A DNA stretch of 64,000 nucleotides from a virus, in the IMG/VR virus record IMGVR_UViG_3300036772_000367, positions 1-64,000 of that record. One strand, given 5' to 3'. Below, in pieces: positions 2,961 through 62,100 of the stretch. The notes under the pieces were generated by a model that saw only the letters and a list, made by a program, of their open reading frames with translations, did not search any database and had not been told where the DNA came from. The number at the start of each line of letters is the position of its first letter. Position 1 is the first letter of the stretch. A program made the position numbers and the translations under genes.

Positions 2961-2997
2961 GGGGTCTGTTCGGTTCTCGACCGCACCGGAGGTCACG

Positions 2998-4015: not shown

Positions 4016-4194
4016 TGGACGAGATCATTGTTGTGTTACTACCGTGTCCGGTGTGTGGTGAGCTGCATCCACAGGGCAGCGCGGTGGTCTTCCTGAGTCG
4101 ACGCTGCCGGCAGCGGTTCGATCGACTGCCACCGAACCGGCAGCGGGACGTCCTGGAGTTCGTCGTGGAGTTCGATCTACCTGAGGAGACATGA
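4015..4194 (+). CDS. small CxxC protein
   Basis: TAATG coupling; CPVCGELH. Confidence 0.5.
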   Translation: MDEIIVVLLPCPVCGELHPQGSAVVFLSRRCRQRFDRLPPNRQRDVLEFVVEFDLPEET

Positions 4195-5375
4195 TGGAGA
4201 AGCTGTCGGACAAGCTACTGTCCTGGGCGTCCATCCTGGAGCCGAACACGCAGGCCCAGGCTGAGATGACCTCGGCCATGCCCTTCGTGCGTCCGCACCT
4301 GGCGTTGATGCCTGACTGCCATCTCGGAAAAGGCTCCACGGTCGGTTCTGTCATTCCGACCGAGAGGGCCATCATGCCGGCGGCGGTGGGCGTGGATATT
4401 GGCTGCGGGATGATGGCGGTGAAGACCCAGTTCACCGAGGAGCAATTCCGGGAGCGTGCCGAGCAGTATCCACTGGCGCACCTGCGCGAGGACATCGAGC
4501 TGTCCATTCCGTTGTCCAAGGGCAACGCCAACGCTCACCTGACGTCCTCGGCGGTGAGCCGGATCAGCCAGTTGGAAGGTCACGCAGAGCGGGCCAGATT
4601 CGATCCGGCGGAACGGCTGTCCAACTGGCAGTATCAGCTCGGCACGTTGGGCTCAGGTAACCACTTCATTGAGGTGACCGCCGACGAAGCTGGTTCAGTG
4701 TGGCTGTTCCTGCACTCCGGCAGCCGAGGTGTTGGCAACCGGATCGCGCAGAAGTACATCAAGGTCGCTCAACAGTGGTGCGAGCGGTGGTTCATCGATC
4801 TCCCGAATCCCGACCTTGCCTATCTGGTGCAGGACACCGAGGACTTCTGGGCCTACATACGAGAGATGAACTGGGCGCAGGAGTTCGCGTGGCTCAACCG
4901 TCAAGAAATGATGGACCGGGTGGAACGGGCTATCGAGCGGTACATGCATCGAACCGTGGCTCGGTTGGAGACGGTGCATTGCCACCACAACTTCACCCAG
5001 CAGGAGGTCCACTTCGGCCGTGAGCTGTGGGTGTCGCGCAAGGGAGCGATCCGTGCCGGCAAGGGTGAGATGGGTCTGATCCCCGGCAGCATGGGCACCG
5101 CCTCCTACGTGGTGTCGGGCCTGGGCAACGTCGCGTCGATGTCCTCGGCACCGCATGGCGCCGGTCGAGTGTTGTCGCGGGGAGCGGCCAAGCGCACCTT
5201 CGACCTGGAGGGCCTGCGTACGGCCATGACCGGCATCGAGTACCGAGACTCCGACGTGTTCCTGGATGAGCACCCGAACGCGTACAAGGATGTGGAAGTC
5301 GTGATGAAGGATGCGGCCGACCTGGTCGAGATCCAACACACGTTGCACCAGACTCTGAATGTAAAGGGGGATTGA
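4191..5375 (+). CDS. rtcB: RtcB RNA ligase
   Basis: MPDCHLG, GVDIGCG, GSGNHF, LHSGSRG, HHN, PGSMG, HGAGR motifs. Confidence 0.96.
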   Translation: MMEKLSDKLLSWASILEPNTQAQAEMTSAMPFVRPHLALMPDCHLGKGSTVGSVIPTERAIMPAAVGVDIGCGMMAVKTQFTEEQFRERAEQYPLAHLREDIELSIPLSKGNANAHLTSSAVSRISQLEGHAERARFDPAERLSNWQYQLGTLGSGNHFIEVTADEAGSVWLFLHSGSRGVGNRIAQKYIKVAQQWCERWFIDLPNPDLAYLVQDTEDFWAYIREMNWAQEFAWLNRQEMMDRVERAIERYMHRTVARLETVHCHHNFTQQEVHFGRELWVSRKGAIRAGKGEMGLIPGSMGTASYVVSGLGNVASMSSAPHGAGRVLSRGAAKRTFDLEGLRTAMTGIEYRDSDVFLDEHPNAYKDVEVVMKDAADLVEIQHTLHQTLNVKGD

Positions 5376-6795: not shown

Positions 6796-7214
6796 CTATC
6801 CCCACTTCGAATTCACGATTCCAGAAGTTCGATCTGCACACTATGAAGGAGCTGCGGGGTCGGTATCCAGGTGCCGCAGCTCGATCGTTGCGTCTGGTCT
6901 GGTGGTTGCCCGTCGTGCACATGCTGGCTCTGGTGGGCACTGTGATGACGCTCGGTTGCTTCCTGACGGCCCTGATGGCCGATCAAGTCATCTGGCTAGG
7001 CGTGGCGCTCCCACCCTTCGCAGTGGTGCTACTGAGCATCCTCGTGCTGCCCTGGCTGTTGGTGCCGGCACAACGGCTGGAGCGGCAGCGCGCCGAGGTG
7101 ACCCAGCCGATCGTCATTCCATGGCATCTCATCCCAGCTCAGACCACGTACGTGCCGATGTCGGGCCGAGACTCGACCACGACACGCCGGCGAGATCACG
7201 ATCTACGTAGCTAG
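6792..7214 (+). CDS. membrane protein
   Basis: two long hydrophobic segments; GTGA overlap. Confidence 0.6.
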   Translation: MTIPTSNSRFQKFDLHTMKELRGRYPGAAARSLRLVWWLPVVHMLALVGTVMTLGCFLTALMADQVIWLGVALPPFAVVLLSILVLPWLLVPAQRLERQRAEVTQPIVIPWHLIPAQTTYVPMSGRDSTTTRRRDHDLRS

Positions 7215-7219
7215 AATTC

Positions 7220-7248
7220 TTGCCACAACGTAGGTGCTTTGATACGCT
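7220..7248 (+). promoter_or_regulatory. early-type promoter
   Basis: TTGCCA-N17-TACGCT, followed by CCGCACCGGAGGTCA RBS. Confidence 0.7.
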
Positions 7249-7287
7249 CTTCTCAGTACACACATCCGACCGCACCGGAGGTCACCC

Positions 7288-7969: not shown

Positions 7970-8020
7970 ACCGAGCCCGTAGCAGAACTCCTTGCTACGG
8001 GCTCGGTTATTTGTTACTCT
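7970..8020 (+). promoter_or_regulatory. terminator hairpin fused with promoter
   Basis: IR 7970-7984/7993-8007; TTGCTA(7992)-N17-TACTCT(8015). Confidence 0.75.
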
Positions 8021-8058
8021 TCAGTTAGCCCATCGACCGCACTGGAGGTCAGATCAAC

Positions 8059-12259: not shown

Positions 12260-12687
12260 TGAAGGAGAACTCGATCAGTGCTGATGAGCTGGAGGCAGTG
12301 CGCGCCGAGTTGCAGGATTACCAGGACGCCCATATCCAACAGCGCAGCGAGTTGATCCGGCTCCGCAGGGAGCGTCAGAAGCTCTCGGACGCCCTGTACG
12401 GTCCCGGGCAGAAGTTGGCCGAGGGTCCTCATCCCAGCCTCGTCACGCAGGTACAGGGCTTTCTTAACGAGCTGCGGGAGCTGACCCGTGTGCAGAACGA
12501 GTACACCTCGCGGTTGAGGCGCGTCATCAGGAATGTCTTGACCTCGTTCGAGAGGGAGATCGGCTGGACGGAGAAGACCGGAGCCGCTGAACGGCTTCGA
12601 GGCATCCCAGCGGACAAGCTCGATGACGTGGTGGATTCGATCATGCGCCACCCGCTCCTACACGAGGCGCAGGAGAAGGACTCATGA
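12256..12687 (+). CDS. coiled-coil hypothetical protein
   Basis: GTGA overlap, heptad-like charge pattern. Confidence 0.6.
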   Translation: MMKENSISADELEAVRAELQDYQDAHIQQRSELIRLRRERQKLSDALYGPGQKLAEGPHPSLVTQVQGFLNELRELTRVQNEYTSRLRRVIRNVLTSFEREIGWTEKTGAAERLRGIPADKLDDVVDSIMRHPLLHEAQEKDS

Positions 12688-12854
12688 TGATCATCATCGA
12701 GGTGGATGACGCCAACGAGACGGAACTCCGGCTGGCCGGCACCTTCGTCCAGACGGTGGAGCGGGACGGCTTCGTGGGGTTCGAGGACCCCACGGACCAC
12801 TATGACCTCAAAGGCTTCAACGTCGTCAGCATCAGCAGCGTCATGGGTCCCTGA
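12684..12854 (+). CDS. 56-aa acidic protein (not in ORF track)
   Basis: ATGA coupling, AAGGA RBS; MMIIIEVDDANETEL... Confidence 0.6.
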   Translation: MMIIIEVDDANETELRLAGTFVQTVERDGFVGFEDPTDHYDLKGFNVVSISSVMGP

Positions 12855-12873
12855 CCAGGACAAATCAAAATCC

Positions 12874-12903
12874 TTGACTCGTCCGCAGAACCCCGGCTAC
12901 ACT
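12874..12903 (+). promoter_or_regulatory. promoter of tRNA operon
   Basis: A-rich upstream, TTGACT-N18-TACACT. Confidence 0.7.
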
Positions 12904-12911
12904 GGTGCTCA

Positions 12912-13087
12912 GCTCGACCGGACCAGCTCCACCGGGAAACCGGATGGCGGACTCCCGCCCAGGACGGTAAGGTCGAGCATAGGACCTGGACATCGGCCGC
13001 ACTGGAGGTCATCATCAAGCAGGCGAGAGGCCGACAGCGACAGCGCTGAAGGTCTCCAGCAGAACTTTCCTCTTGCAGGGAAGAAGA
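12912..13087 (+). ncRNA. structured leader RNA of tRNA operon
   Basis: GCTCGACC/GGTCGAGC outer stem, CCGG-GAAA-CCGG and other hairpins; internal copy of start-associated motif. Confidence 0.5.
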
Positions 13088-13132
13088 GGTACGAGACAGC
13101 GTTGGCCTGACCTCCGGTGTCTGTCTCGTACC
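13088..13132 (+). ncRNA. hairpin RNA antisense to early-gene RBS motif
   Basis: 12-bp stem; TGACCTCCGGTG (13108-13119) is the reverse complement of CACCGGAGGTCA. Confidence 0.55.
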
Positions 13133-13135
13133 CAA

Positions 13136-13209
13136 CGCGGAGTGGCGCAACTCGGTAGCGCGCTGGGCTCATAACCCAGAGGTCCCTGGTTCGAATCCAG
13201 GCTCCGCTA
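13136..13209 (+). tRNA. tRNA-fMet(CAT)
   Basis: cloverleaf, C1:U72 mismatch, three G-C pairs in anticodon stem. Confidence 0.93.
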
Positions 13210-13254
13210 CGTAGGATAGATGTGGGTCGGACTTAGGCCGTCAGCATATGATCT

Positions 13255-13273
13255 CTGACAACTCCATGACCAT
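13255..13273 (+). repeat. left arm of 19-bp inverted repeat (boxA-like)
   Basis: CTGACAACTCCATGACCAT is the exact reverse complement of 23743-23761. Confidence 0.9.
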
Positions 13274-13372
13274 TCCCGGTAGTCCGCCAAGCTACTGGGC
13301 TGTGCGGGGCAGTCTCCCCGTGTATCAATCCTTGACGGCCGTCCGTGTCATATAGCGGATCGGACGGCCGAT

Positions 13373-13443
13373 GACGGAGTGGCCGAGAGGCGAGGCGACC
13401 GCCTGCAAAGCGGTGCACACGGGTTCGAATCCCGTCTCTGTCT
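13373..13443 (+). tRNA. tRNA-Cys(GCA)
   Basis: cloverleaf, loop CTGCAAA, U73. Confidence 0.92.
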
Positions 13444-13578: not shown

Positions 13579-13708
13579 CGGCTGATGTTCGACTACGTGC
13601 GCCATGCCTGTAGGCGGAAGACATCAGTGGCCGGCACCAGCCTGCTGCGGCAGGGTGACCCGGCGTCCGGTCTGAGGGCTCCAACATTGTCCTCAGACCG
13701 GACCATAA

Positions 13709-14096: not shown

Positions 14097-14204
14097 ACGG
14101 AGTCGGCTACCTGGGAGATACCCCGGTGCACCGGGACGGCTCAGGTCCGTTGAAATGCCGACCGCGCTGCCTGCCTCACCCCCCTGCGGTAGGCAGCGCG
14201 TCAT

Positions 14205-14620: not shown

Positions 14621-14693
14621 GCTCCTATCGTCTAGCGGCCTAGGATCTCGGATTTTCACCCCGGGGGCACGGGTTCGAATCCCGTTGGGAGTA
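14621..14693 (+). tRNA. tRNA-Glu(TTC)
   Basis: cloverleaf, one anticodon-stem mismatch. Confidence 0.9.
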
Positions 14694-14697
14694 CGAA

Positions 14698-14772
14698 GGG
14701 AAAGGTAGAGGTTCAATTCCTCTCCGCCCGGCCACATCGGGCGAGTGGTGTTAACGTGGCGTGCACATTCCC
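14698..14772 (+). ncRNA. circularly permuted tRNA-like RNA 2
   Basis: GGGAA-AGGT-T arm-CCGCCCG-G-CCA-cat-CGGGCGAG-TG-D arm-A-TTCCC. Confidence 0.7.
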
Positions 14773-14779
14773 GGCTCTT

Positions 14780-14851
14780 GGCGATTTAGCTCAGTGGAAG
14801 AGTGCTTCCGTGACATGGAAGATGTCCCAGGTTCGATCCCTGGAATCGCTA
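14780..14851 (+). tRNA. tRNA-Val(GAC)
   Basis: cloverleaf, G32. Confidence 0.9.
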
Positions 14852-14852
14852 C

Positions 14853-14925
14853 GGCGGTATAGCTCAGTCGGCAGAGCGCGCGATTCATATTCGCGTCGTC
14901 CCTGGTTCGATCCCAGGTACCGCTA
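14853..14925 (+). tRNA. tRNA-Met(CAT), elongator type
   Basis: cloverleaf, GGC start. Confidence 0.85.
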
Positions 14926-15024
14926 CGTAGTACTCACCCCGAGGTACGCCCGACGTGAGAGCAGGCGGAATTTGTCAGGTATCAGACTGATCATCTGAGG
15001 TTTTGGCGTTCGTGGTCTGCATCC

Positions 15025-19793: not shown

Positions 19794-19901
19794 CGGGAAG
19801 TATCCCAGGTAACATAAACTGATTCGGCTCGGTGAGGGTCCTCGGTGCTTCCTAGTAAAAGGACGGGCTGCTTCACATGGCAGGGGAGTAGCCCGTCCTT
19901 C

Positions 19902-25185: not shown

Positions 25186-25243
25186 ATATACCGAAGACTT
25201 CGTAGCAAGAAAACTTGCTACGGAGTCTTCGGTATGTCATGAT
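25186..25243 (+). promoter_or_regulatory. terminator hairpin fused with promoter
   Basis: 22-bp IR 25188-25209/25214-25235; TTGCTA(25215)-N17-CATGAT. Confidence 0.72.
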
Positions 25244-25279
25244 GGTCTTATCAACAAGACAGCACCACCGGAGGTCATC

Positions 25280-25610: not shown

Positions 25611-25664
25611 AACAGAGAGTCCGTAGCAAGAATCATTGCTACGGACTCTCTGTTTTGCTACACT
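25611..25664 (+). promoter_or_regulatory. terminator hairpin fused with promoter
   Basis: 19-bp IR 25611-25629/25636-25654 plus T tract; TTGCTA-N17-TACACT. Confidence 0.78.
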
Positions 25665-25697
25665 GAACGGGTAAGCCAAGCCGCACCGGAGGTCATC

Positions 25698-26090
25698 ATG
25701 CAAGCAGCTGAATTCCTGGCCACGTACGACGACATCACGATCGAACTCACCCACGTCCGCGACTACACCGAGCGGATGGACGGCTACTCGATATCGCGCC
25801 GTGAGTGGCTAGGCATGCTGAGCGGGCCGGACGGGGACATCACGTTCTCGTACTTCACCGGAATCCAGGAGAACGACCCAGACACCCTGTTCGCGCTCTA
25901 CAGCATCGCGTCCGACTGCGCGGCTGGGTCGCAGCCGCTGGAGGACTTCCTGGACGAGTACGGCACCGACCACGTCAAAGAGCAGATCGCGACGTGGCGC
26001 GCGTGTGAGGAATCGGCTCAGCGGTTCCGTGAGTGGATGGACAACCCTGCCATGTGGGACGACTTCCTCACCATCGAACCCAACGACTGA
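25698..26090 (+). CDS. acidic hypothetical protein
   Basis: CCGCACCGGAGGTCATCATG. Confidence 0.72.
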   Translation: MQAAEFLATYDDITIELTHVRDYTERMDGYSISRREWLGMLSGPDGDITFSYFTGIQENDPDTLFALYSIASDCAAGSQPLEDFLDEYGTDHVKEQIATWRACEESAQRFREWMDNPAMWDDFLTIEPND

Positions 26091-26428: not shown

Positions 26429-26479
26429 TCGGACCATGTAGCAGGCAAACTTGCTACATGGTCCGACTTCTGGCAAGAT
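26429..26479 (+). promoter_or_regulatory. hairpin fused with promoter
   Basis: 15-bp IR 26429-26443/26452-26466; TTGCTA-N17-CAAGAT. Confidence 0.7.
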
Positions 26480-26514
26480 GAGTTCTGTCAGATCAGACCG
26501 CACCGGAGGTCACC

Positions 26515-30701: not shown

Positions 30702-30919
30702 CCTTCGCAGGTTGGTACTCGATGAGCTTCTTCGTAGTAGGACGATGGCATGATGCCGTCGTAGACCGTCTTGTCGTCCTCGCTCAACGACACGGTTGGG
30801 CGGGTGCGGTCCGTAGCTCTCTGCGGACATAGTATTTAGATGTCCGTGTGTTTCAGGGTTGCCAACCATGGCACGACACGCTAGTGTCGTAGGTGTCGGT
30901 CCTTCGGGACCGGCACCAG

Positions 30920-31322: not shown

Positions 31323-31403
31323 CTCTCCCTTCTGTGGACCTGGGTGGGAGAACGCCGATCGAGGGTTCCAGCGAGTTGCAGAACTCGCCTCGATCGGCAC
31401 CAT

Positions 31404-32703: not shown

Positions 32704-33024
32704 ATGCGCAAGATCGCTACGAACGTCACCGCGACCGAGAACTGCACCAATGCGGAGATTGCCATCTCAGGTTTCCTCACCGTGGTGCTGGTCGAGCAGG
32801 TAGCCAAGAACCCCGACGAGTACGAGATCGTCCTGGACGACCGCCTGAAGGGCACCAAGACAGAGATCCCGTTCGACTGCATGGGGTCCTTCACCGAGGC
32901 GGTGGCTGCCGCCGGTCGTGCCCTGCTTCAAGCCGCTCAGGATGCGAAGCTGGACGACATGGACGGAGTACTTGCCAGCGAGATGGCGAAGTCCTTCGAA
33001 CGGACTGGCTCTACCGAAGTGTAG
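32704..33024 (+). CDS. hypothetical protein
   Basis: GAGAGG RBS. Confidence 0.6.
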   Translation: MRKIATNVTATENCTNAEIAISGFLTVVLVEQVAKNPDEYEIVLDDRLKGTKTEIPFDCMGSFTEAVAAAGRALLQAAQDAKLDDMDGVLASEMAKSFERTGSTEV

Positions 33025-33033
33025 TGAGAAACC

Positions 33034-33062
33034 TTGCTATGAGCCTTGTCTCCTGGTAACGT
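33034..33062 (+). promoter_or_regulatory. early-type promoter
   Basis: TTGCTA-N17-TAACGT; upstream GTAGTGAGAAACC nearly identical to that at 2919. Confidence 0.7.
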
Positions 33063-33099
33063 CAGTCTTGTCAGTCACCCGACCGCACTGGAGGTCAGA

Positions 33100-45039: not shown

Positions 45040-45710
45040 CGTTGATGCTGCATGTCGCCACGTCAGTCGAGGATCACGTCGACCGACTGGTAGCGGGGAC
45101 CGATCTGGAAGGCAATGAGAGTATGCGTAAGCACATTGCCAAGGTCGTCGCGACTGTGCCTGAGCAGCATCTGGCGACATTGGGCAGCATCTCTATCAAG
45201 CCAGACAAGGACCCTAATACGCGCGGTCGATACCGGAGCCGTGGCTATTCGGCCCGTACCAAGCAACCCGTTCCCGCATCTATCACCTTCACGCCGCATG
45301 TGGTGAACGATGAGAAGGGGTACCACTCAGAGATTCGCGACTCTGAGAAGAAAGGTTGGCTGCGACGGACAGGTTTGCCAGGCGTGCAGGCGACCTTGCA
45401 TCATGAAGTAGGTCATCATCTCTATGATGCTATGAATCAAAAGCAGCATGATGCCATGTGGACTGAGGTTGGGGCACAACCAGAGTTCAAGCCACCCAAT
45501 ACTCGTAGTGCCCAACCCATTGGTCCGCGCTTCATTCGTAGTAATCGATCCAATATGGTCAATCAAGTCGGTGTATATGGCGCATACAATGAACGTGAAG
45601 CTGCATCTGAACTGTATGCGCAGCATCACGGGAAGTATCCCACTGAGGCATCACACATTGCATTTCGCCATATGACGGGAGGGACCGATGAAGATCCCGG
45701 GGCCTCGTGA
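45036..45710 (+). CDS. zincin metallopeptidase (HExxH)
   Basis: TLHHEVGHH...YGAYNEREAASELY. Confidence 0.75.
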   Translation: MTLMLHVATSVEDHVDRLVAGTDLEGNESMRKHIAKVVATVPEQHLATLGSISIKPDKDPNTRGRYRSRGYSARTKQPVPASITFTPHVVNDEKGYHSEIRDSEKKGWLRRTGLPGVQATLHHEVGHHLYDAMNQKQHDAMWTEVGAQPEFKPPNTRSAQPIGPRFIRSNRSNMVNQVGVYGAYNEREAASELYAQHHGKYPTEASHIAFRHMTGGTDEDPGAS

Positions 45711-47877
45711 AGTCGGTGCGGTACTCGCTGGAGTATTGAGCGAACCGCCCTCGCTTGCTCGTGATCGTGCGCTGGCCATCCTGAGTGGAGAGGCACACAC
45801 GGCAGCCACTATCCCAGCCGGTTGGGAAGGCGCGCAGGGACCGTTCCGTAGTGACTACAACGAGCCGCATGTCTACGCTCGTGACATTCATTCCGGCGCC
45901 GGTAACTGTGTCTGCGGTGCTGGATTGCAAGAGCGAGTTCATCTCCAAGCAGCTCCGGGTGTAGAGATACCTGACAGAATGCGCACCACAGCATTCCCTA
46001 CGAGGGAGTGCGATAACTGCGGCGGTAGGATGTCACCTCGGTGGCCACGTACCAGACTCGATGATGGACGAATGGTGTGCCCCATGTGCGCTCAGAACGG
46101 GCCGCGTACCGCTGTGATCATGCCTAAGGAGTGGCTGAATTGGGCACGACAGCCGCGACTCGCGGGCCTCTCTCCTCACGATCGTGAATGGCATCACGGG
46201 TGGGATCTGGGATATGACCACGGTCGTGCCAGCGAGCCAGATCTCAGTGAGAGGGATCGAGCGTTTCACCGCTCGGCGCACAAAGAGCAGTTCTCCCAGG
46301 GATACTCTCATGGACTGCATTCCGGTCTGGATCAGACGACATCTTCGTCCACCACATCCGTGGTCGCCGTGCGGGATGACGGACAACTGCGGGTGCTGGC
46401 TCATGACTCTGGTTCGGTGGAGGTCATCTACCACTGCTTCGCAGGAGAGACGCGCTATCTCACCAAGGAGGGCACGAAGACCTTCGCTGAGACTGCGGGC
46501 ACCGTTCAAGAAGTGTTGACCTCTGCGGGTATTGCCAATGACCGTGGTCGGTGGGCGGAAGCCATCATCCATAGCTTCGGTCCGCAGCCAGTCATGACAG
46601 TGCGACTACGTCGCAACAAGGTTGTTAAAACCATTCGCGCCACACATAACCACGAATGGAACATTTTGGGTCGTAATAAGGCCCATCGTGTGGTGACCAC
46701 TCAGGATCTGAAGCCTGGTATGCGGATGGCCCACCTGCGAGCGCGGGGATACTTCTATGAGCCTGAGCATGAGGCTATTCGCATGGGCTTCGTCTTCGGT
46801 GATGGCGCTATTCTGCAACGTCCCCAACAGACATATGGTGTGGCAGTTCTCTGGGGGCCGAAGCGAGATCTGGCCAAATACTTTGATGAAGTATGTACGA
46901 CCGCCCCCCGGGAACGCACCACGATCAATGATGTACCGGGACTGGCATACACCTCCGGCATGGTGGGCTACACCAAAACACTGCCCCCGTTGACGGCACC
47001 ACTGGAGTACCTGCACGGCTGGTTGATGGGATACTTCGCCGCTGACGGCTCGGTCACTAAGACCAACATCAGCATGACGTCTTCAGTGCTGGAGAACCTT
47101 CAGCACGTGCGGGATGTAGCTATCCTATTGGGTATCGGTACTTATTCCATTACCTCGAAGTGGCGCACTGGGTTTGGTGTGACCTCGCAGATCCACACAC
47201 TCGGTTTTTCGGGTAAGGACATGGGTACGTCATTCTTCTTGCGGCATGACCATCAGGATGCCTACGACCTGCGTGACGAACGAGGCACCAATGACCGTGA
47301 GCGTTTCGGGTGGACAGTCGATGCCATTGAGGACACTGGTGAGGTCACCCCCGTCTACTGCGCTCGCGTACCGGAGACCGGCACCTTCGTGCTGGAAGAC
47401 AACATCTGGACCCGAAACTGTCCCTTCTGTGGTTCTGGTCAGGTGATCGCGCGTTCGGATGGCACTGTCATGTGCGAGTTCTGCAACTCTTCCTTCACCG
47501 TGCAGGTGCAGCCGGAGTTCTCGGCGTTCCCCCAGACCGTCGATGGTCAGCCGGTACAGATTCCTGGTCTGCCACCCGACTCCAACCAGGACGCGGGTGG
47601 TCTGCCTCCTGATGAGGGTGCACCAGGCGACCCCACGGCCGAGGACAACGTGCCGAACGATGCTGAGGAGAACGGCCCGCCCGAGGACGGCGACAACACC
47701 GAGGACGAGCCCATCGACTCCGGCGGCAATCCCTTGTTTAACAAGCACTCCTACCGCACCGCTTCGGGTCATGCCCTGTCCGAACTGGAGTATGTTCGTC
47801 ATCTTGCCTTGAAGATCACTCCCGACCGGAAGAATGTGCTCGCACGTATCCGGTTGGAGAGAGCAGCAGGTGACTGA
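45688..47877 (+). CDS. multi-module zinc-ribbon protein with intein
   Basis: CDNC...CPMC; spliced product gives YH-CPFCGSG...CEFC. Confidence 0.8.
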   Translation: MKIPGPREVGAVLAGVLSEPPSLARDRALAILSGEAHTAATIPAGWEGAQGPFRSDYNEPHVYARDIHSGAGNCVCGAGLQERVHLQAAPGVEIPDRMRTTAFPTRECDNCGGRMSPRWPRTRLDDGRMVCPMCAQNGPRTAVIMPKEWLNWARQPRLAGLSPHDREWHHGWDLGYDHGRASEPDLSERDRAFHRSAHKEQFSQGYSHGLHSGLDQTTSSSTTSVVAVRDDGQLRVLAHDSGSVEVIYHCFAGETRYLTKEGTKTFAETAGTVQEVLTSAGIANDRGRWAEAIIHSFGPQPVMTVRLRRNKVVKTIRATHNHEWNILGRNKAHRVVTTQDLKPGMRMAHLRARGYFYEPEHEAIRMGFVFGDGAILQRPQQTYGVAVLWGPKRDLAKYFDEVCTTAPRERTTINDVPGLAYTSGMVGYTKTLPPLTAPLEYLHGWLMGYFAADGSVTKTNISMTSSVLENLQHVRDVAILLGIGTYSITSKWRTGFGVTSQIHTLGFSGKDMGTSFFLRHDHQDAYDLRDERGTNDRERFGWTVDAIEDTGEVTPVYCARVPETGTFVLEDNIWTRNCPFCGSGQVIARSDGTVMCEFCNSSFTVQVQPEFSAFPQTVDGQPVQIPGLPPDSNQDAGGLPPDEGAPGDPTAEDNVPNDAEENGPPEDGDNTEDEPIDSGGNPLFNKHSYRTASGHALSELEYVRHLALKITPDRKNVLARIRLERAAGD
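46435..47418 (+). mobile_element. intein with LAGLIDADG endonuclease (328 aa)
   Basis: CFAGET block A, ATHNHEW block B, GFVFGDG/GYFAADG, VYC...WTRN-C. Confidence 0.9.
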
Positions 47878-59100: not shown

Positions 59101-62100
59101 ATACTATTCCTGGAGTGACTCCATACACGGAGAAGCGGGCTACTGAACACGGATTGAATAAATGGCATAACGCGAACTATGCCCACCTCATCAATCACGT
59201 CGGGACGTATGCCGCAAAGAATTACCGCGAACTTGCAGCTGAGTTGTATTCTGAACATAGACATGCCGACAATCCATCGCTTGCTGCTCAGACAGCGGGC
59301 CGTCATCTGGAGGGGCGATTTGACGACGATAACAATGAACAGCGCGGATTTGCAGGAGAGTTTGGCGAAGCTAGTTCATATGGAGCCCAGCGCCGAACGG
59401 GATCAGGCCATCGCGAAGGTCATCTCACAGTTGGAGGAGTGCAGGCAGAAGGGTCTCTAACTTTCTGCACTGATACTGAGGAAATGCAGCGGGTCGCCGC
59501 GCTCGACAAAGAGGGACAGTGGCATCTGACGGCGTCCTGGGCAGACGTCAAGGACAAGGCGAAGCTGATCCGCGCGGGTGGTGGTGTCCGTATCGCCGTG
59601 GCATCGATGGATGGCATTGGCGGAGAAGTCCAGGGTGAGCACCATGTCTACGAGACACTGCTGACCTTCGTGCCCGGCTCGTACAAAGTGGGTTCCTGGC
59701 AGTGCGGCTGCAAGTGGGCTGCCTATGCTTGGGGCCGCTCGCCAGCGTATCGACGGTTCGAAGGCCGGATGTGCTCCCATGCCCTGGCCATGCAGTACGA
59801 GGCCCAGGCCCGAGGGATGTTCGGCCGCACTGTCCAGGAGGACCGGGAGCGTCCACACTGGCTCAAGCCGCACTCGCCGGTCGTAGTGCAGTACGAGCGA
59901 CCGAGTGAGAAGCACCCGCAGGGCATCGACCTGACGCGTCGTGCGGTGCCGCCGGGCAACATGCGCACGACGTTCGGGTCCAAGGAGGCAGCGATGGAAC
60001 CAGCACAACTGATCGCGCTGGCCGTGCTGACGATGTGCGACCACGATCCGGTGCGTGCCATCCCCTCCCTGGGGCTGTACGGCTTCGACCACCGCACTGC
60101 GCAACTGTTGATCAAGCAGGCGACCGAACACGAGGACGCGGAAAGTCTGAGCGTGCCGCCGTTGCGCTTGGAGCAGCTGCACCCCGAACCGATGCGGTCT
60201 ACTGCGTCGAAGCGATGCCCTGAGTGCAGTGCCTCGGTTTCCAGCAGTGCGCTGACGTGCCCCGAGTGCGGTGCGAACCTTGCCGATGTTCCCGAACTCC
60301 ATGAGGCTTCATGGCAGGACGAGGAGCAGCGCTGTCCGCACTGTGGTGGCTACCTGGGCCCGACCGCGTTCAAGGCGGGGCGCTGCCCGCACTGCGGCCA
60401 TGCACTGTCGCACCGGGAAGGTGCCTACGAGCCGGGCCTGCACAACACGCAGGATGCCCGGATGAACACCGAGGCCCCTGACTGGGGCACAGACCACCTC
60501 GTGCCCTGCGACCAGTGTCGTGGACAAGGCTGCGGTCACTGCGGCGGCACGGGCAACGTGGTGCAGATGAACGGGGTCACTGGCTCGCCTGTGCCTGACC
60601 AGTCCGAGGGTGCCGGCGACGTCATGCGTCAGGACGGCTTGGCGTGGGGTGATCCCATCTCGATGGGTGCCGTGTTGGCAGCACATGAAGATGACCCAAC
60701 TTACTTGCGCTTTGGCTCGTGGCCGAAGGACGAGCGATCGCGAAACAATATCACGGGGTTCCCTGAAGAAGGCGTGAGCGTCTACGATCTCGACCACCGT
60801 GGTGAGCCGAAGGATCCGGACGCCAACTTTGGTCGCTTGCATGAGCACCACGAGCATTGTGATCCGGACTGCGATTTGGACTCGTGGAACGAGGACTACG
60901 GTAACGACACCCTGGAGGAAATGCGGGGACGAGTGCATCGTGCCGAGAGGACTCGCTACAACGGCAACGAGAACCACAGCGATACCGGACATCTGGTCAA
61001 GGGCGAGATGGCGGGCATTGGCCATGACGGCGAGCCGCTGCTGAAGAATGTGCGCCGAGTCGGCGACTGGATCGATCATCGCCATCTGTTTTTCCCGCAG
61101 GCGGAGAGGCACCGACTGGCTCGTGATCCCTATGACGAGGACTACGAAGAGCCCAAGCTGAACAAACGTAGCGCAAAGAAGCAGGAGAGCCACGCGCCTT
61201 CGGTCGCGGGCGTGGCGCTCAAGGCGGCCGACACGGGTCGAGTACTGATGCTGCAACGTGGCCTAGAGGACAAGAAGGATCCTGCTGCTGGTACGTGGGA
61301 ATTCCCCGGCGGCCACATTGAGCCGGGCGACAAGACGTCTCTGCATGGTGCGATGCGGGAGTGGGAAGAGGAAGTCGGTCAACCGTTCCCGGACGGTGGT
61401 GTGGTCCACCACGTCTGGACGTCGCCGAATGGTGTCTACCAGGGTCACGTCGTGGTGATCCCCGCCGAGCGTGACCTGACGATGCACGACGGCCGCGTGA
61501 TGACCAATCCTGATGATCCACATGGTGATCATGCCGAGCAGGCTGCCTGGTGGCAGGTCGAGCACGCACGCAAGAACCCCGCACTGCGGCCCGAGGTGAA
61601 GCAGAATACGCCATGGAAGCAGCTTGCCAACGCAGGAATGCAGAAGGAAGCTGACTACGCCGCGAATGATGCACTCAGTGGCGGCGGTCCCGAGGTGCAC
61701 ACGCCTACCGACGCACCGCAGCACTCTAACTCCACAAACCCGGCCAGCACCGGCTACGCGACGTCCTGGGATCCGAACGGGTGGAACGGCGAGGAACCCT
61801 TCGGCGGTCGTGATGACGTGCCCATGGCGGGCTACTCGGCATCCTTGGCACCCATCATCGAACCCCGATACTCCTACCAGCCGCCGCAGGCCGTAGCGAG
61901 TGTCCTGGGCCAATGGGGGCAGGGACAGACACCCGTGGTGTTCGAGCGTGCCGCCAGGACGCTGGCCACTCTGCACGACGAGCCAGAACCTGCGCTGCCC
62001 TCCACCGATGGTGGTGACGAGCGCATGAAGCCGATCAACCACCTGCATCACGGCATCCCACACAATGACCAGGGCACAATGCCGTACGGCTATGACGATC

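Follow-up and report, generated by a model that had tools for sequence, protein, structure and literature searches.

The window analysed here, the first 64 kb of a 155,226-bp IMG/VR virus contig with 59% G+C, contains 40 plus-strand tRNA genes between 13136 and 31688. The first of them, a tRNA-Met(CAT) (ARAGORN; Rfam tRNA, 64.8 bits), is initiator-like because it combines a C1xU72 mismatch with three G-C pairs closing the anticodon stem. It begins 3 nt past a 45-nt hairpin whose upper part is antisense to a sequence motif found ahead of gene starts in this phage. The features of the locus are as follows.

12874-12903, plus strand: sigma-70-like promoter TTGACT-18-TACACT of the initiator-tRNA unit (9/12 matches; 0.2 such sites expected)
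12912-12978, plus strand: first domain of the leader, branched and closed by CTCGACC/GGTCGAG (fold prediction)
12995-13011, plus strand: dummy ('decoy') copy of the motif, GGCCGCACTGGAGGTCA, with ATC in place of ATG and an 11-codon frame at 13014-13049
13023-13060 and 13065-13083, plus strand: two spacer hairpins between the dummy copy and the antisense hairpin (fold prediction)
13088-13132, plus strand: antisense hairpin
13136-13210, plus strand: initiator-like tRNA-Met(CAT)

RNAfold assigns the hairpin -25.6 kcal/mol (z = -4.1), and none of 200 shuffled sequences folds as well. Its arms, GGTACGAGACAG (13088-13099) and CTGTCTCGTACC (13121-13132), are perfect complements that form a 12-bp stem, above which lie a bulged U13120, a 6-bp extension CGUUGG/CCGGUG with three G.U pairs (13100-13105 with 13114-13119) and an 8-nt apical loop, CCUGACCU (13106-13113). 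On the plus strand, positions 13108-13119 spell TGACCTCCGGTG, to which the start-associated motif CACCGGAGGTCA is exactly reverse-complementary. This anti-motif is split between TGACCT in the loop, which costs 0.03 kcal/mol to open, and CCGGTG in the weak extension, which costs 5.7 kcal/mol. G13116 stands opposite the C/T position of the motif and accepts both bases, forming a single G.U pair with the T variant.

An earlier note on this DNA, made from the sequence alone, had described a hairpin displaying the antisense of the motif, with TGACCT in the loop, CCGGTG in a G.U-rich extension, a G that accepts both motif variants and an end 3 nt before tRNA-fMet. The arms, the exact 12-mer, the fold with its opening energies, G13116 and the ARAGORN start at 13136 bear this description out. 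So does the concession that part of the match is generic, since ACCUCC counts as an ordinary anti-Shine-Dalgarno sequence. The note also had the stem enclosing the antisense 12-mer; the 12-mer does lie inside the stem, but the enclosed segment is 21 nt and thus larger than the 12-mer.

The hairpin closes a non-coding leader of ~224 nt (about 12912-13135), the whole of which folds at -100.4 kcal/mol (z = -3.4). RNase P cleavage at the 5' end of the tRNA would set 13135 as the 3' end of this leader. We detected no coding signal in any frame of the leader. For 12856-13110 the coding score is -0.15 to -0.37 bits per codon, and G+C is flat by codon position, where real genes reach +0.5 to +0.6 bits per codon with GC3 of 0.8-0.9. 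A protein-coding reading was rejected, the ORF at 12706-13110 scoring as non-coding, and the 11-codon frame after the dummy copy scores likewise.

Other identities for the hairpin were also rejected. An Rfam scan of 12600-13400 (E <= 1) matched only the tRNA, and the c4 covariance model, a three-stem fold, gave no match, so that no known RNA family accounts for the hairpin. It is not an intrinsic terminator, there being no terminator-like site or U-tract and the hairpin being followed by CAA and then the tRNA. Origin by inverted duplication was discarded, with similarity of at most 12 nt and arms that have no second genomic copy, as was a role for the anti-motif as the ribosome site of a minus-strand gene, the 15 nt that follow it on that strand containing no start codon.

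The promoter at 12874-12903 is the best sigma-70-like promoter of the region, and the leader sits among motif-bearing genes. This promoter belongs to a 'class B' (TCCTTGAC) that lacks the palindrome found in promoters of motif-bearing genes. On the plus strand TCCTTGAC occurs only here and at 13329. This second box (13329-13372) lies between tRNA-fMet and tRNA-Cys and overlaps a 10-bp hairpin. Because it follows tRNA-fMet directly, the initiator tRNA may be a transcription unit of its own.

The start-associated motif and the rarity of its antisense

The core of the motif, CACYGGAGG, occurs 15 times on the plus strand of the window, against 1.9 copies expected on both strands together, and genome-wide it has 27 copies on the plus strand and 6 on the minus strand. 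Nineteen of the 27 plus-strand copies lie 5-10 nt ahead of an ORF start (ORFs of at least 30 codons), and the full consensus is GACCGCACYGGAGGTCA. Products of the motif-bearing ORFs include a DinG/XPD-like helicase, HNH-like and anti-restriction-like proteins and small proteins of no assigned function; it is plausible that these non-structural genes are 'early'. Single exact-motif matches at three further loci (L009, L016 and L017) fall inside genes and were set aside as chance.

The motif is usually preceded by a promoter whose -35 region lies inside the palindrome GTAGCAAGAAAACTTGCTAC. A motif leader comes next after eight of the nine plus-strand promoters of this type. Half of the 20-bp palindrome forms the -35 region, and the palindrome is probably an operator. 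Those in the window are at 7207-7234, 7979-8006, 25202-25229, 25623-25650, 26438-26465 and 33021-33048.

Four distant relatives share the core motif, which is invariant among them, with 12-38 copies each. Two are long (G001, 149.7 kb; G002, 155.3 kb), two are fragments (G003 and G004), and all have about 67% G+C; the portal proteins of G002 and the studied phage are 28% identical. In the relatives the motif copies come after promoters with another palindrome, CTACCCGAACGGGTAG, between -35 and -10, and those of G001 and G002 combine TTGAC with CTACCCGAACGGGTAG.

Comparison of 69 motif copies from three genomes revealed covariation of the flanks around CC-GCACYGGA-GG. In these flanks 84% of cells pair, compared with 68.5% after shuffling, and the covariation score is 0.345 against 0.104 for shuffled flanks; none of 500 shuffles reaches 0.345, and slid controls stay at or below 0.10. 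The third flank pair, for example, is AU in 22 copies, GC in 19, UA in 7, GU in 6 and CG in 3, and is unpaired in 12. On this covariation the motif is a predicted small RNA stem-loop, NNCC-GCACYGGA-GGNN, with a 3-4-bp stem that takes up half of GGAGG; written out as a hairpin it reads GACC-GCACCGGA-GGUC. Examples in the window lie at 2976-2998, 7265-7287 and 25676-25698, and others at loci L019-L034. The 8-nt loop is invariant across three genomes that differ in G+C, which suggests a putative factor that reads it.

The motif core, CCGCACCGGA-GGT, also resembles the 5' strand plus GGAA loop of helix 45 of Actinomycetota 16S rRNA (CCGTACCGGAAGGT). The match covers 12 of 13 aligned bases with one gap, and the 16S segment (L148:2558-2593) lies just upstream of the anti-Shine-Dalgarno tail. 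Of all 16S rRNA segments, helix 45 matches the motif best, a quality of match that 42 of 5000 shuffles also reach.

From Markov models (order 0-4), each strand of the 155-kb genome should hold 0.03-0.08 copies of the exact antisense 12-mer, which makes chance an unlikely source. It was observed twice, at 13108-13119 in the hairpin and in the leader of a genuine minus-strand gene at 107406. For the non-coding or pre-tRNA hairpin tops, a few hundred bases, we estimate an expectation of 1e-4 to 1e-3.

The earlier note supposed that the hairpin would explain why the motif is conserved. The relatives contradict this. G001, G002 and G004 hold 27, 38 and 21 motif copies without a dedicated antisense RNA, so three of the four relatives that keep the motif do so in its absence. 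Because its flanks covary as a stem, also in genomes without antisense RNA, the motif has a constraint of its own. In G001, G002 and G004 the antisense sequence occurs only in leaders of opposite-strand genes or, at chance frequency, in coding sequence, and no such element lies ahead of the tRNAs of G001 and G002. Two apparent exceptions were dismissed: reversed 9-mers in G001 and G002 are opposite-strand gene leaders or intragenic and occur at the expected frequency, and a 10/12 resemblance in a G002 pre-tRNA hairpin is one of 52 such matches in that genome.

Searches for closer relatives of the locus returned little. DNA and protein searches of GenBank phages gave no close relative, an IMG/VR search with the neighbouring proteins and the portal returned only G002, and a search of 5.8 billion proteins with the upstream gene matched that gene alone. 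A pattern joining the antisense to the 5' end of an initiator tRNA had no match in IMG/VR; its 11 matches in metagenomes were all rejected as chance hits in G+C-rich coding sequence. The promoter-palindrome pattern retrieved nine unrelated contigs of low G+C, and a search for loci based on RtcB retrieved unrelated phages of about 40% G+C. No homologue of the leader was found in the collections searched.

Partners for the antisense within the leader and beyond it

A candidate partner lies in the leader itself. The dummy motif copy is 108 nt upstream of the antisense, is a T variant and has no ATG, GTG or TTG within 3-13 nt. Apart from ATC for ATG, its sequence over 21 nt is the same as that around the start of the gene at 149400. 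It is one of only two well-formed gene-strand motif copies without a start codon. The other, at G000:C1:151161-151177, has no start codon within 13 nt, and the next gene lies about 90 nt downstream.

We think it probable that the antisense works by RNA-RNA pairing with the motif, in cis, in trans or both. Within this, our preferred though tentative explanation is an in-cis leader switch. The hairpin would be the last stem-loop of a ~224-nt non-coding 5' leader of the initiator-tRNA transcription unit, and its upper part would be an anti-Shine-Dalgarno element fitted to the phage's private start-associated motif, the likeliest partner being the dummy motif in the same RNA. In one fold the dummy ribosome site would be free and the antisense stored in the hairpin; in the other, dummy and antisense would be paired and the stem beside the tRNA opened. 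Such a switch might keep ribosomes off an abundant untranslated precursor or, alternatively, link the occupancy of the dummy by ribosomes to the structure that confronts RNase P 3 nt ahead of the initiator tRNA. That the leader RNA is made, that its folds interconvert in the cell and that these consequences follow, we infer.

Support for the in-cis switch includes the non-coding leader shared by dummy and antisense, the closeness of their pairing to the energy minimum, and a relative that holds the same three elements in cis. Forcing the helix between 13000-13011 and 13108-13119 gives -98.6 kcal/mol against -100.4 kcal/mol unconstrained, a cost of 1.8 kcal/mol. The complementarity and the two near-equal folds are thus present here, and the in-cis version is present in the relative.

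That relative is G003, where the locus lies on the minus strand (C1:24600-25900; L202; reverse-complement coordinates 14651-15018) and a five-tRNA cluster begins with tRNA-Met, as in the studied phage. The order of elements is promoter, start-less motif, 15-nt antisense, real motif with the ATG of a 21-codon ORF that is conserved in G002, hairpin and tRNA. The antisense pairs with the real ribosome site in a perfect 15-bp hairpin (-58.4 kcal/mol); with the dummy copy it folds at -56.4 kcal/mol, so that the two folds are within 2 kcal/mol, as the two mutually exclusive folds of the studied leader are. The nascent RNA, before the real site is made, folds into the dummy-antisense pairing. On these predicted folds the arrangement is a classical three-element translational switch, and we found nothing comparable in G001, G002 or G004. 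The encoded mini-protein (MGF...WVKDI..., 21-26 aa) lies directly before the tRNA clusters of G002 (L025:14373-14453) and G003 (reverse-complement about 14786-14851) and has no counterpart in the 64-kb window.

Several points count against the in-cis switch in the studied leader. The antisense is perfect for the majority C variant of the motif, and the dummy, a T variant, pairs with it through a G.U. The unconstrained minimum retains the local hairpin. We rejected extra complementarity specific to the dummy, whose flanks pair no better than shuffled ones (-28.2 vs -31.6 +/- 2.8), and several real gene leaders pair with the antisense better than the dummy does. In G003 the antisense covers a real downstream ribosome site, so that a translated ORF with a masked ribosome site is found there, whereas no ORF follows the leader here. 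No such element precedes the tRNAs of G001 and G002, and since no leader homologue was found, nothing shows selection on the leader.

One gene leader deserves mention for its flank. Ahead of the anti-restriction-like gene at 149895 (G000:C1:149868-149892), GGTACGA stands three nt before the motif and is the heptamer that begins the 5' arm of the hairpin. This leader could pair with the antisense plus the 3' arm (-35.3 kcal/mol), a value within the spread of shuffled flanks.

Action in trans is the strongest rival, and we regard it as doubtful. By cutting at the 5' end of the tRNA, RNase P would set free either the whole leader or a smaller piece with the hairpin, both ending in a nuclease-resistant 3' stem-loop. 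The RNA would damp the translation of at least 11 non-structural genes, its loop seeding on AGGUCA, zipping through the weak extension and covering the ribosome sites. Candidate targets in the window are the following.

2984-2995, plus strand: exact 12-nt complement, 5 nt before ATG 2998
7273-7284, plus strand: before ATG 7288 (HNH-like protein)
8040-8051, plus strand: T variant, before ATG 8059
25266-25277, plus strand: before ATG 25280
25684-25695, plus strand: before ATG 25698
26501-26512, plus strand: before ATG 26515
33086-33097, plus strand: T variant, before ATG 33100

In all, the exact 12-nt complement is present in eleven gene leaders, and a complement of 9-10 nt in about 8 others. 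Opening the 12 nt of the anti-motif costs 6.8 kcal/mol and opening the target sites about 5-8 kcal/mol, against duplexes of -21 to -23 kcal/mol, which leaves a net of about -9 kcal/mol for the 11 leaders. The seed UGACCU is free in the loop, and the locus thus shows the accessible seed and favourable net pairing to several ribosome sites expected of a trans-acting anti-Shine-Dalgarno sRNA. The antisense fits the majority motif variant rather than the neighbouring dummy, with a G that tolerates both, and its 12-nt match to the motif exceeds that of the 16S rRNA 3' tail, with which GGAGGU pairs and which needs a G where the motif has C. The full GGTCA flank accompanies 12 of the 27 motif copies of the studied phage, compared with about 10 of 65 in G001 and G002, an enrichment that may only mirror the lower G+C of the studied phage. 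Regulatory RNAs from tRNA spacers are known, for example 3'ETS-leuZ of E. coli, a tRNA-precursor RNA made by RNase E that sponges sRNAs (cited in bioRxiv 10.1101/2021.04.25.441314). The reversed start-associated sequence of Cluster K1 phages, single in each genome and in Anaya placed in the 10-nt apical loop of a conserved non-coding hairpin, offers a parallel, but that antisense loop is confined to K1-type phages though others share the motif.

Against action in trans, every molecule carries its own dummy target, motif-bearing relatives lack any such RNA, and one RNA would face at least 19 abundant messages. Leaders at the 5' end of tRNAs are usually short-lived. The proposal in the earlier note, that one trans-acting sRNA could shut off a regulon of early genes, is supported in part. 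Pairing in trans is feasible, at about -9 kcal/mol for 11 leaders, but the dummy copy and the G003 switch make self-pairing at least as likely. The timing it proposed, a shut-off of early genes once the tRNA operon is transcribed, has no basis: temporal separation is not evident from the promoters, the leader having the best sigma-70-like promoter of the region and lying among motif-bearing genes.

We thus favour the in-cis switch over regulon-wide control in trans, because every leader RNA brings its partner with it and because G003, alone among the relatives in having the antisense, uses it in cis. A partner on the same molecule would win out over trans partners at low concentration, and trans action after release by RNase P could coexist with the cis switch. 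In its boldest form, which we consider unlikely, the released initiator-tRNA leader would be a master riboregulator of at least 11 early or non-structural genes, its loop covering their private, hairpin-shaped ribosome-site tag, with the dummy as a built-in antidote or timer. If this were true, the leader and the reversed loop of Cluster K1 would provide the first mechanism for start-associated sequences of actinobacterial phages.

Readings without antisense pairing

Rather unlikely, in our judgement, is a hairpin of the common pre-tRNA leader type, with a match to the motif in its loop that arose through chance or descent. Such hairpins may serve processing or stability, for instance by shielding the 3' end that RNase P cleavage leaves on the upstream RNA. 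Among the 36 tRNAs with enough spacer, 13 have a hairpin of at least -15 kcal/mol in strength closing 2-6 nt upstream, compared with 4 of 20 control positions 60 nt further upstream. In G001, G002 and G003, too, the first tRNA is preceded by a hairpin, though the loops are unrelated. ACCUCC, as part of the match, is generic, and the hairpin was selected out of a very large scan, from which rare coincidences are expected. The hairpin as a structure is not special; only its loop content is unusual. It is this content that speaks against an ordinary hairpin, given the expectations for the exact 12-mer in 155 kb and in hairpin tops stated above, the absence of the anti-motif from all other pre-tRNA hairpins of the array and the start-less motif copy in the same leader, as in G003.

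The pre-tRNA hairpins of the array include those at 13336-13370, 13665-13703, 14163-14200, 19859-19900, 30892-30917 and 31354-31398, which may be processing or 3'-end-protecting elements.

We assign little probability to explanations other than pairing in cis, pairing in trans and an ordinary hairpin. Least probable is that the element is recognised as DNA, or that it serves a motif-reading factor as a binding site or decoy: in double-stranded DNA an inverted copy is the same site, and the inverted copy lies 108 bp, about ten helical turns, from the direct one, but the strand bias of the motif, its fixed spacing to start codons and its covarying flanks point to an RNA-level element, and the antisense RNA is unlike the motif hairpin that an RNA-binding protein would recognise.

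Relation to known systems

Start-associated sequences (SAS) of actinobacterial phages have been catalogued since 2011 without an assigned function. In Cluster K mycobacteriophages they are extended ribosome-site motifs, present in one orientation before 13-19 non-structural genes, a subset of which have a promoter and inverted repeat upstream (PMC3203893; PMC11373665; PMC12699233). The motif of the studied phage is similarly a private extension of the ribosome site a few nt before non-structural starts. Its 27-to-6 strand bias and the 19 of 27 copies at 5-10 nt parallel the single orientation and 3-9 nt spacing of SAS, and the eight of nine GTAGCAAGAAAACTTGCTAC promoters followed by a motif leader parallel the SAS subset with a SigA-like promoter carrying an inverted repeat. 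Both motifs have symmetric outer bases (GGG...CCC in Cluster K). The sequences are nevertheless unrelated, the 13-bp Cluster K consensus being GGGATAGGAGCCC and the motif here (GA)CCGCACYGGAGG(TCA), and so are the phages. Covariation of the flanks as a stem, seen here, is not reported for SAS.

Pope et al. described one reversed SAS per K1 genome, away from gene starts, and found no support for pairing of ESAS repeats (PMC3203893). The reversed copy of the studied phage differs in lying in a tRNA-operon leader beside a dummy copy. In Anaya the reversed SAS lies in a non-coding gap at 59870, with one mismatch that makes CCUCC, and forms the 10-nt loop at the tip of a GC-clamped hairpin; the region 59810-59944 (L057:39811-39945) folds as a two-tier conserved hairpin with apical loop CCUCCUAUCC. 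The Anaya-type scaffold is conserved in 138 phages and its reversed-SAS loop is invariant in six K1-type sequences, but other loops occur in Amgine and Ekdilam, whose SAS consensus is identical, and also in Keshu and SirPhilip. Judged from these comparisons, the antisense loop is lineage-limited, in Cluster K and in the studied clade, and not a universal partner of the motif. The Anaya loop also resembles the 16S rRNA 3' tail, and a hypothetical protein is annotated over the region in some records.

The c4 antisense RNA of P1 and P7 is a phage RNA excised by RNase P, with loops that pair on the same transcript and occlude a ribosome-binding site (Citron & Schuster 1990; Hartmann et al. 1995; summarised in PMC5320573). 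The studied leader would share with it RNase P processing and pairing with a ribosome-site copy on the same transcript. It differs in its fold, the three-stem c4 family of Rfam giving no match, and in that RNase P makes the 5' end of c4 but would make the 3' end of this leader. Furthermore, c4 controls a single immunity operon, whereas the motif is common to many genes.

Hfq-independent Gram-positive bacteria have sRNAs with C-rich loops, such as 6C/B11 of actinobacteria, RsaE and RNAIII, whose pyrimidine-rich loops pair with G-rich ribosome sites. The studied hairpin may likewise pair through its loop with the ribosome sites of several messages. They are free-standing genes with conserved folds, whereas the loop here carries a 12-nt, motif-specific sequence and has no Rfam match.

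By-products of tRNA operons have been used or proposed as base-pairing RNAs elsewhere: besides 3'ETS-leuZ, the sRNA2 of phage PAK_P3 lies between tRNA genes, and the band C and D RNAs of T4 are mentioned with it (PMC4933390). None of these is antisense to a shared ribosome-site motif, and the PAK_P3 and T4 RNAs have no established targets.

Some anti-Shine-Dalgarno switches act in cis through mutually exclusive helices, such as the ermC leader attenuator and the pairing of the icaR 5' and 3' UTRs. The studied leader likewise holds a complement of a ribosome site in the same RNA and alternative pairings of similar energy, and G003 has the full three-element form. No translated ORF follows the studied leader, so its output would be something other than translation. 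RegB endoribonuclease and the RegA repressor of T4 shut off a class of early messages through their ribosome-binding sites; the likeness lies in the whole class of early messages, and the difference in effectors that are proteins.

In the studied clade a start-associated motif can, on the covariation described above, be an RNA stem-loop around the ribosome site, and antisense copies of it are built into leaders of tRNA operons, with a clear in-cis switch in one relative. If the pairing is real, it would tie the control of translation initiation in the phage to the unit that makes its own initiator tRNA.

Two further genes of the window are of interest. An RtcB RNA ligase gene at 4191-5375 (Pfam E = 8e-115) precedes the tRNA array by 8 kb, and Cluster K phages also have RtcB. 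The gene at 45688-47877 encodes a 729-aa protein with a central LAGLIDADG domain (residues 442-490), possibly an intein.
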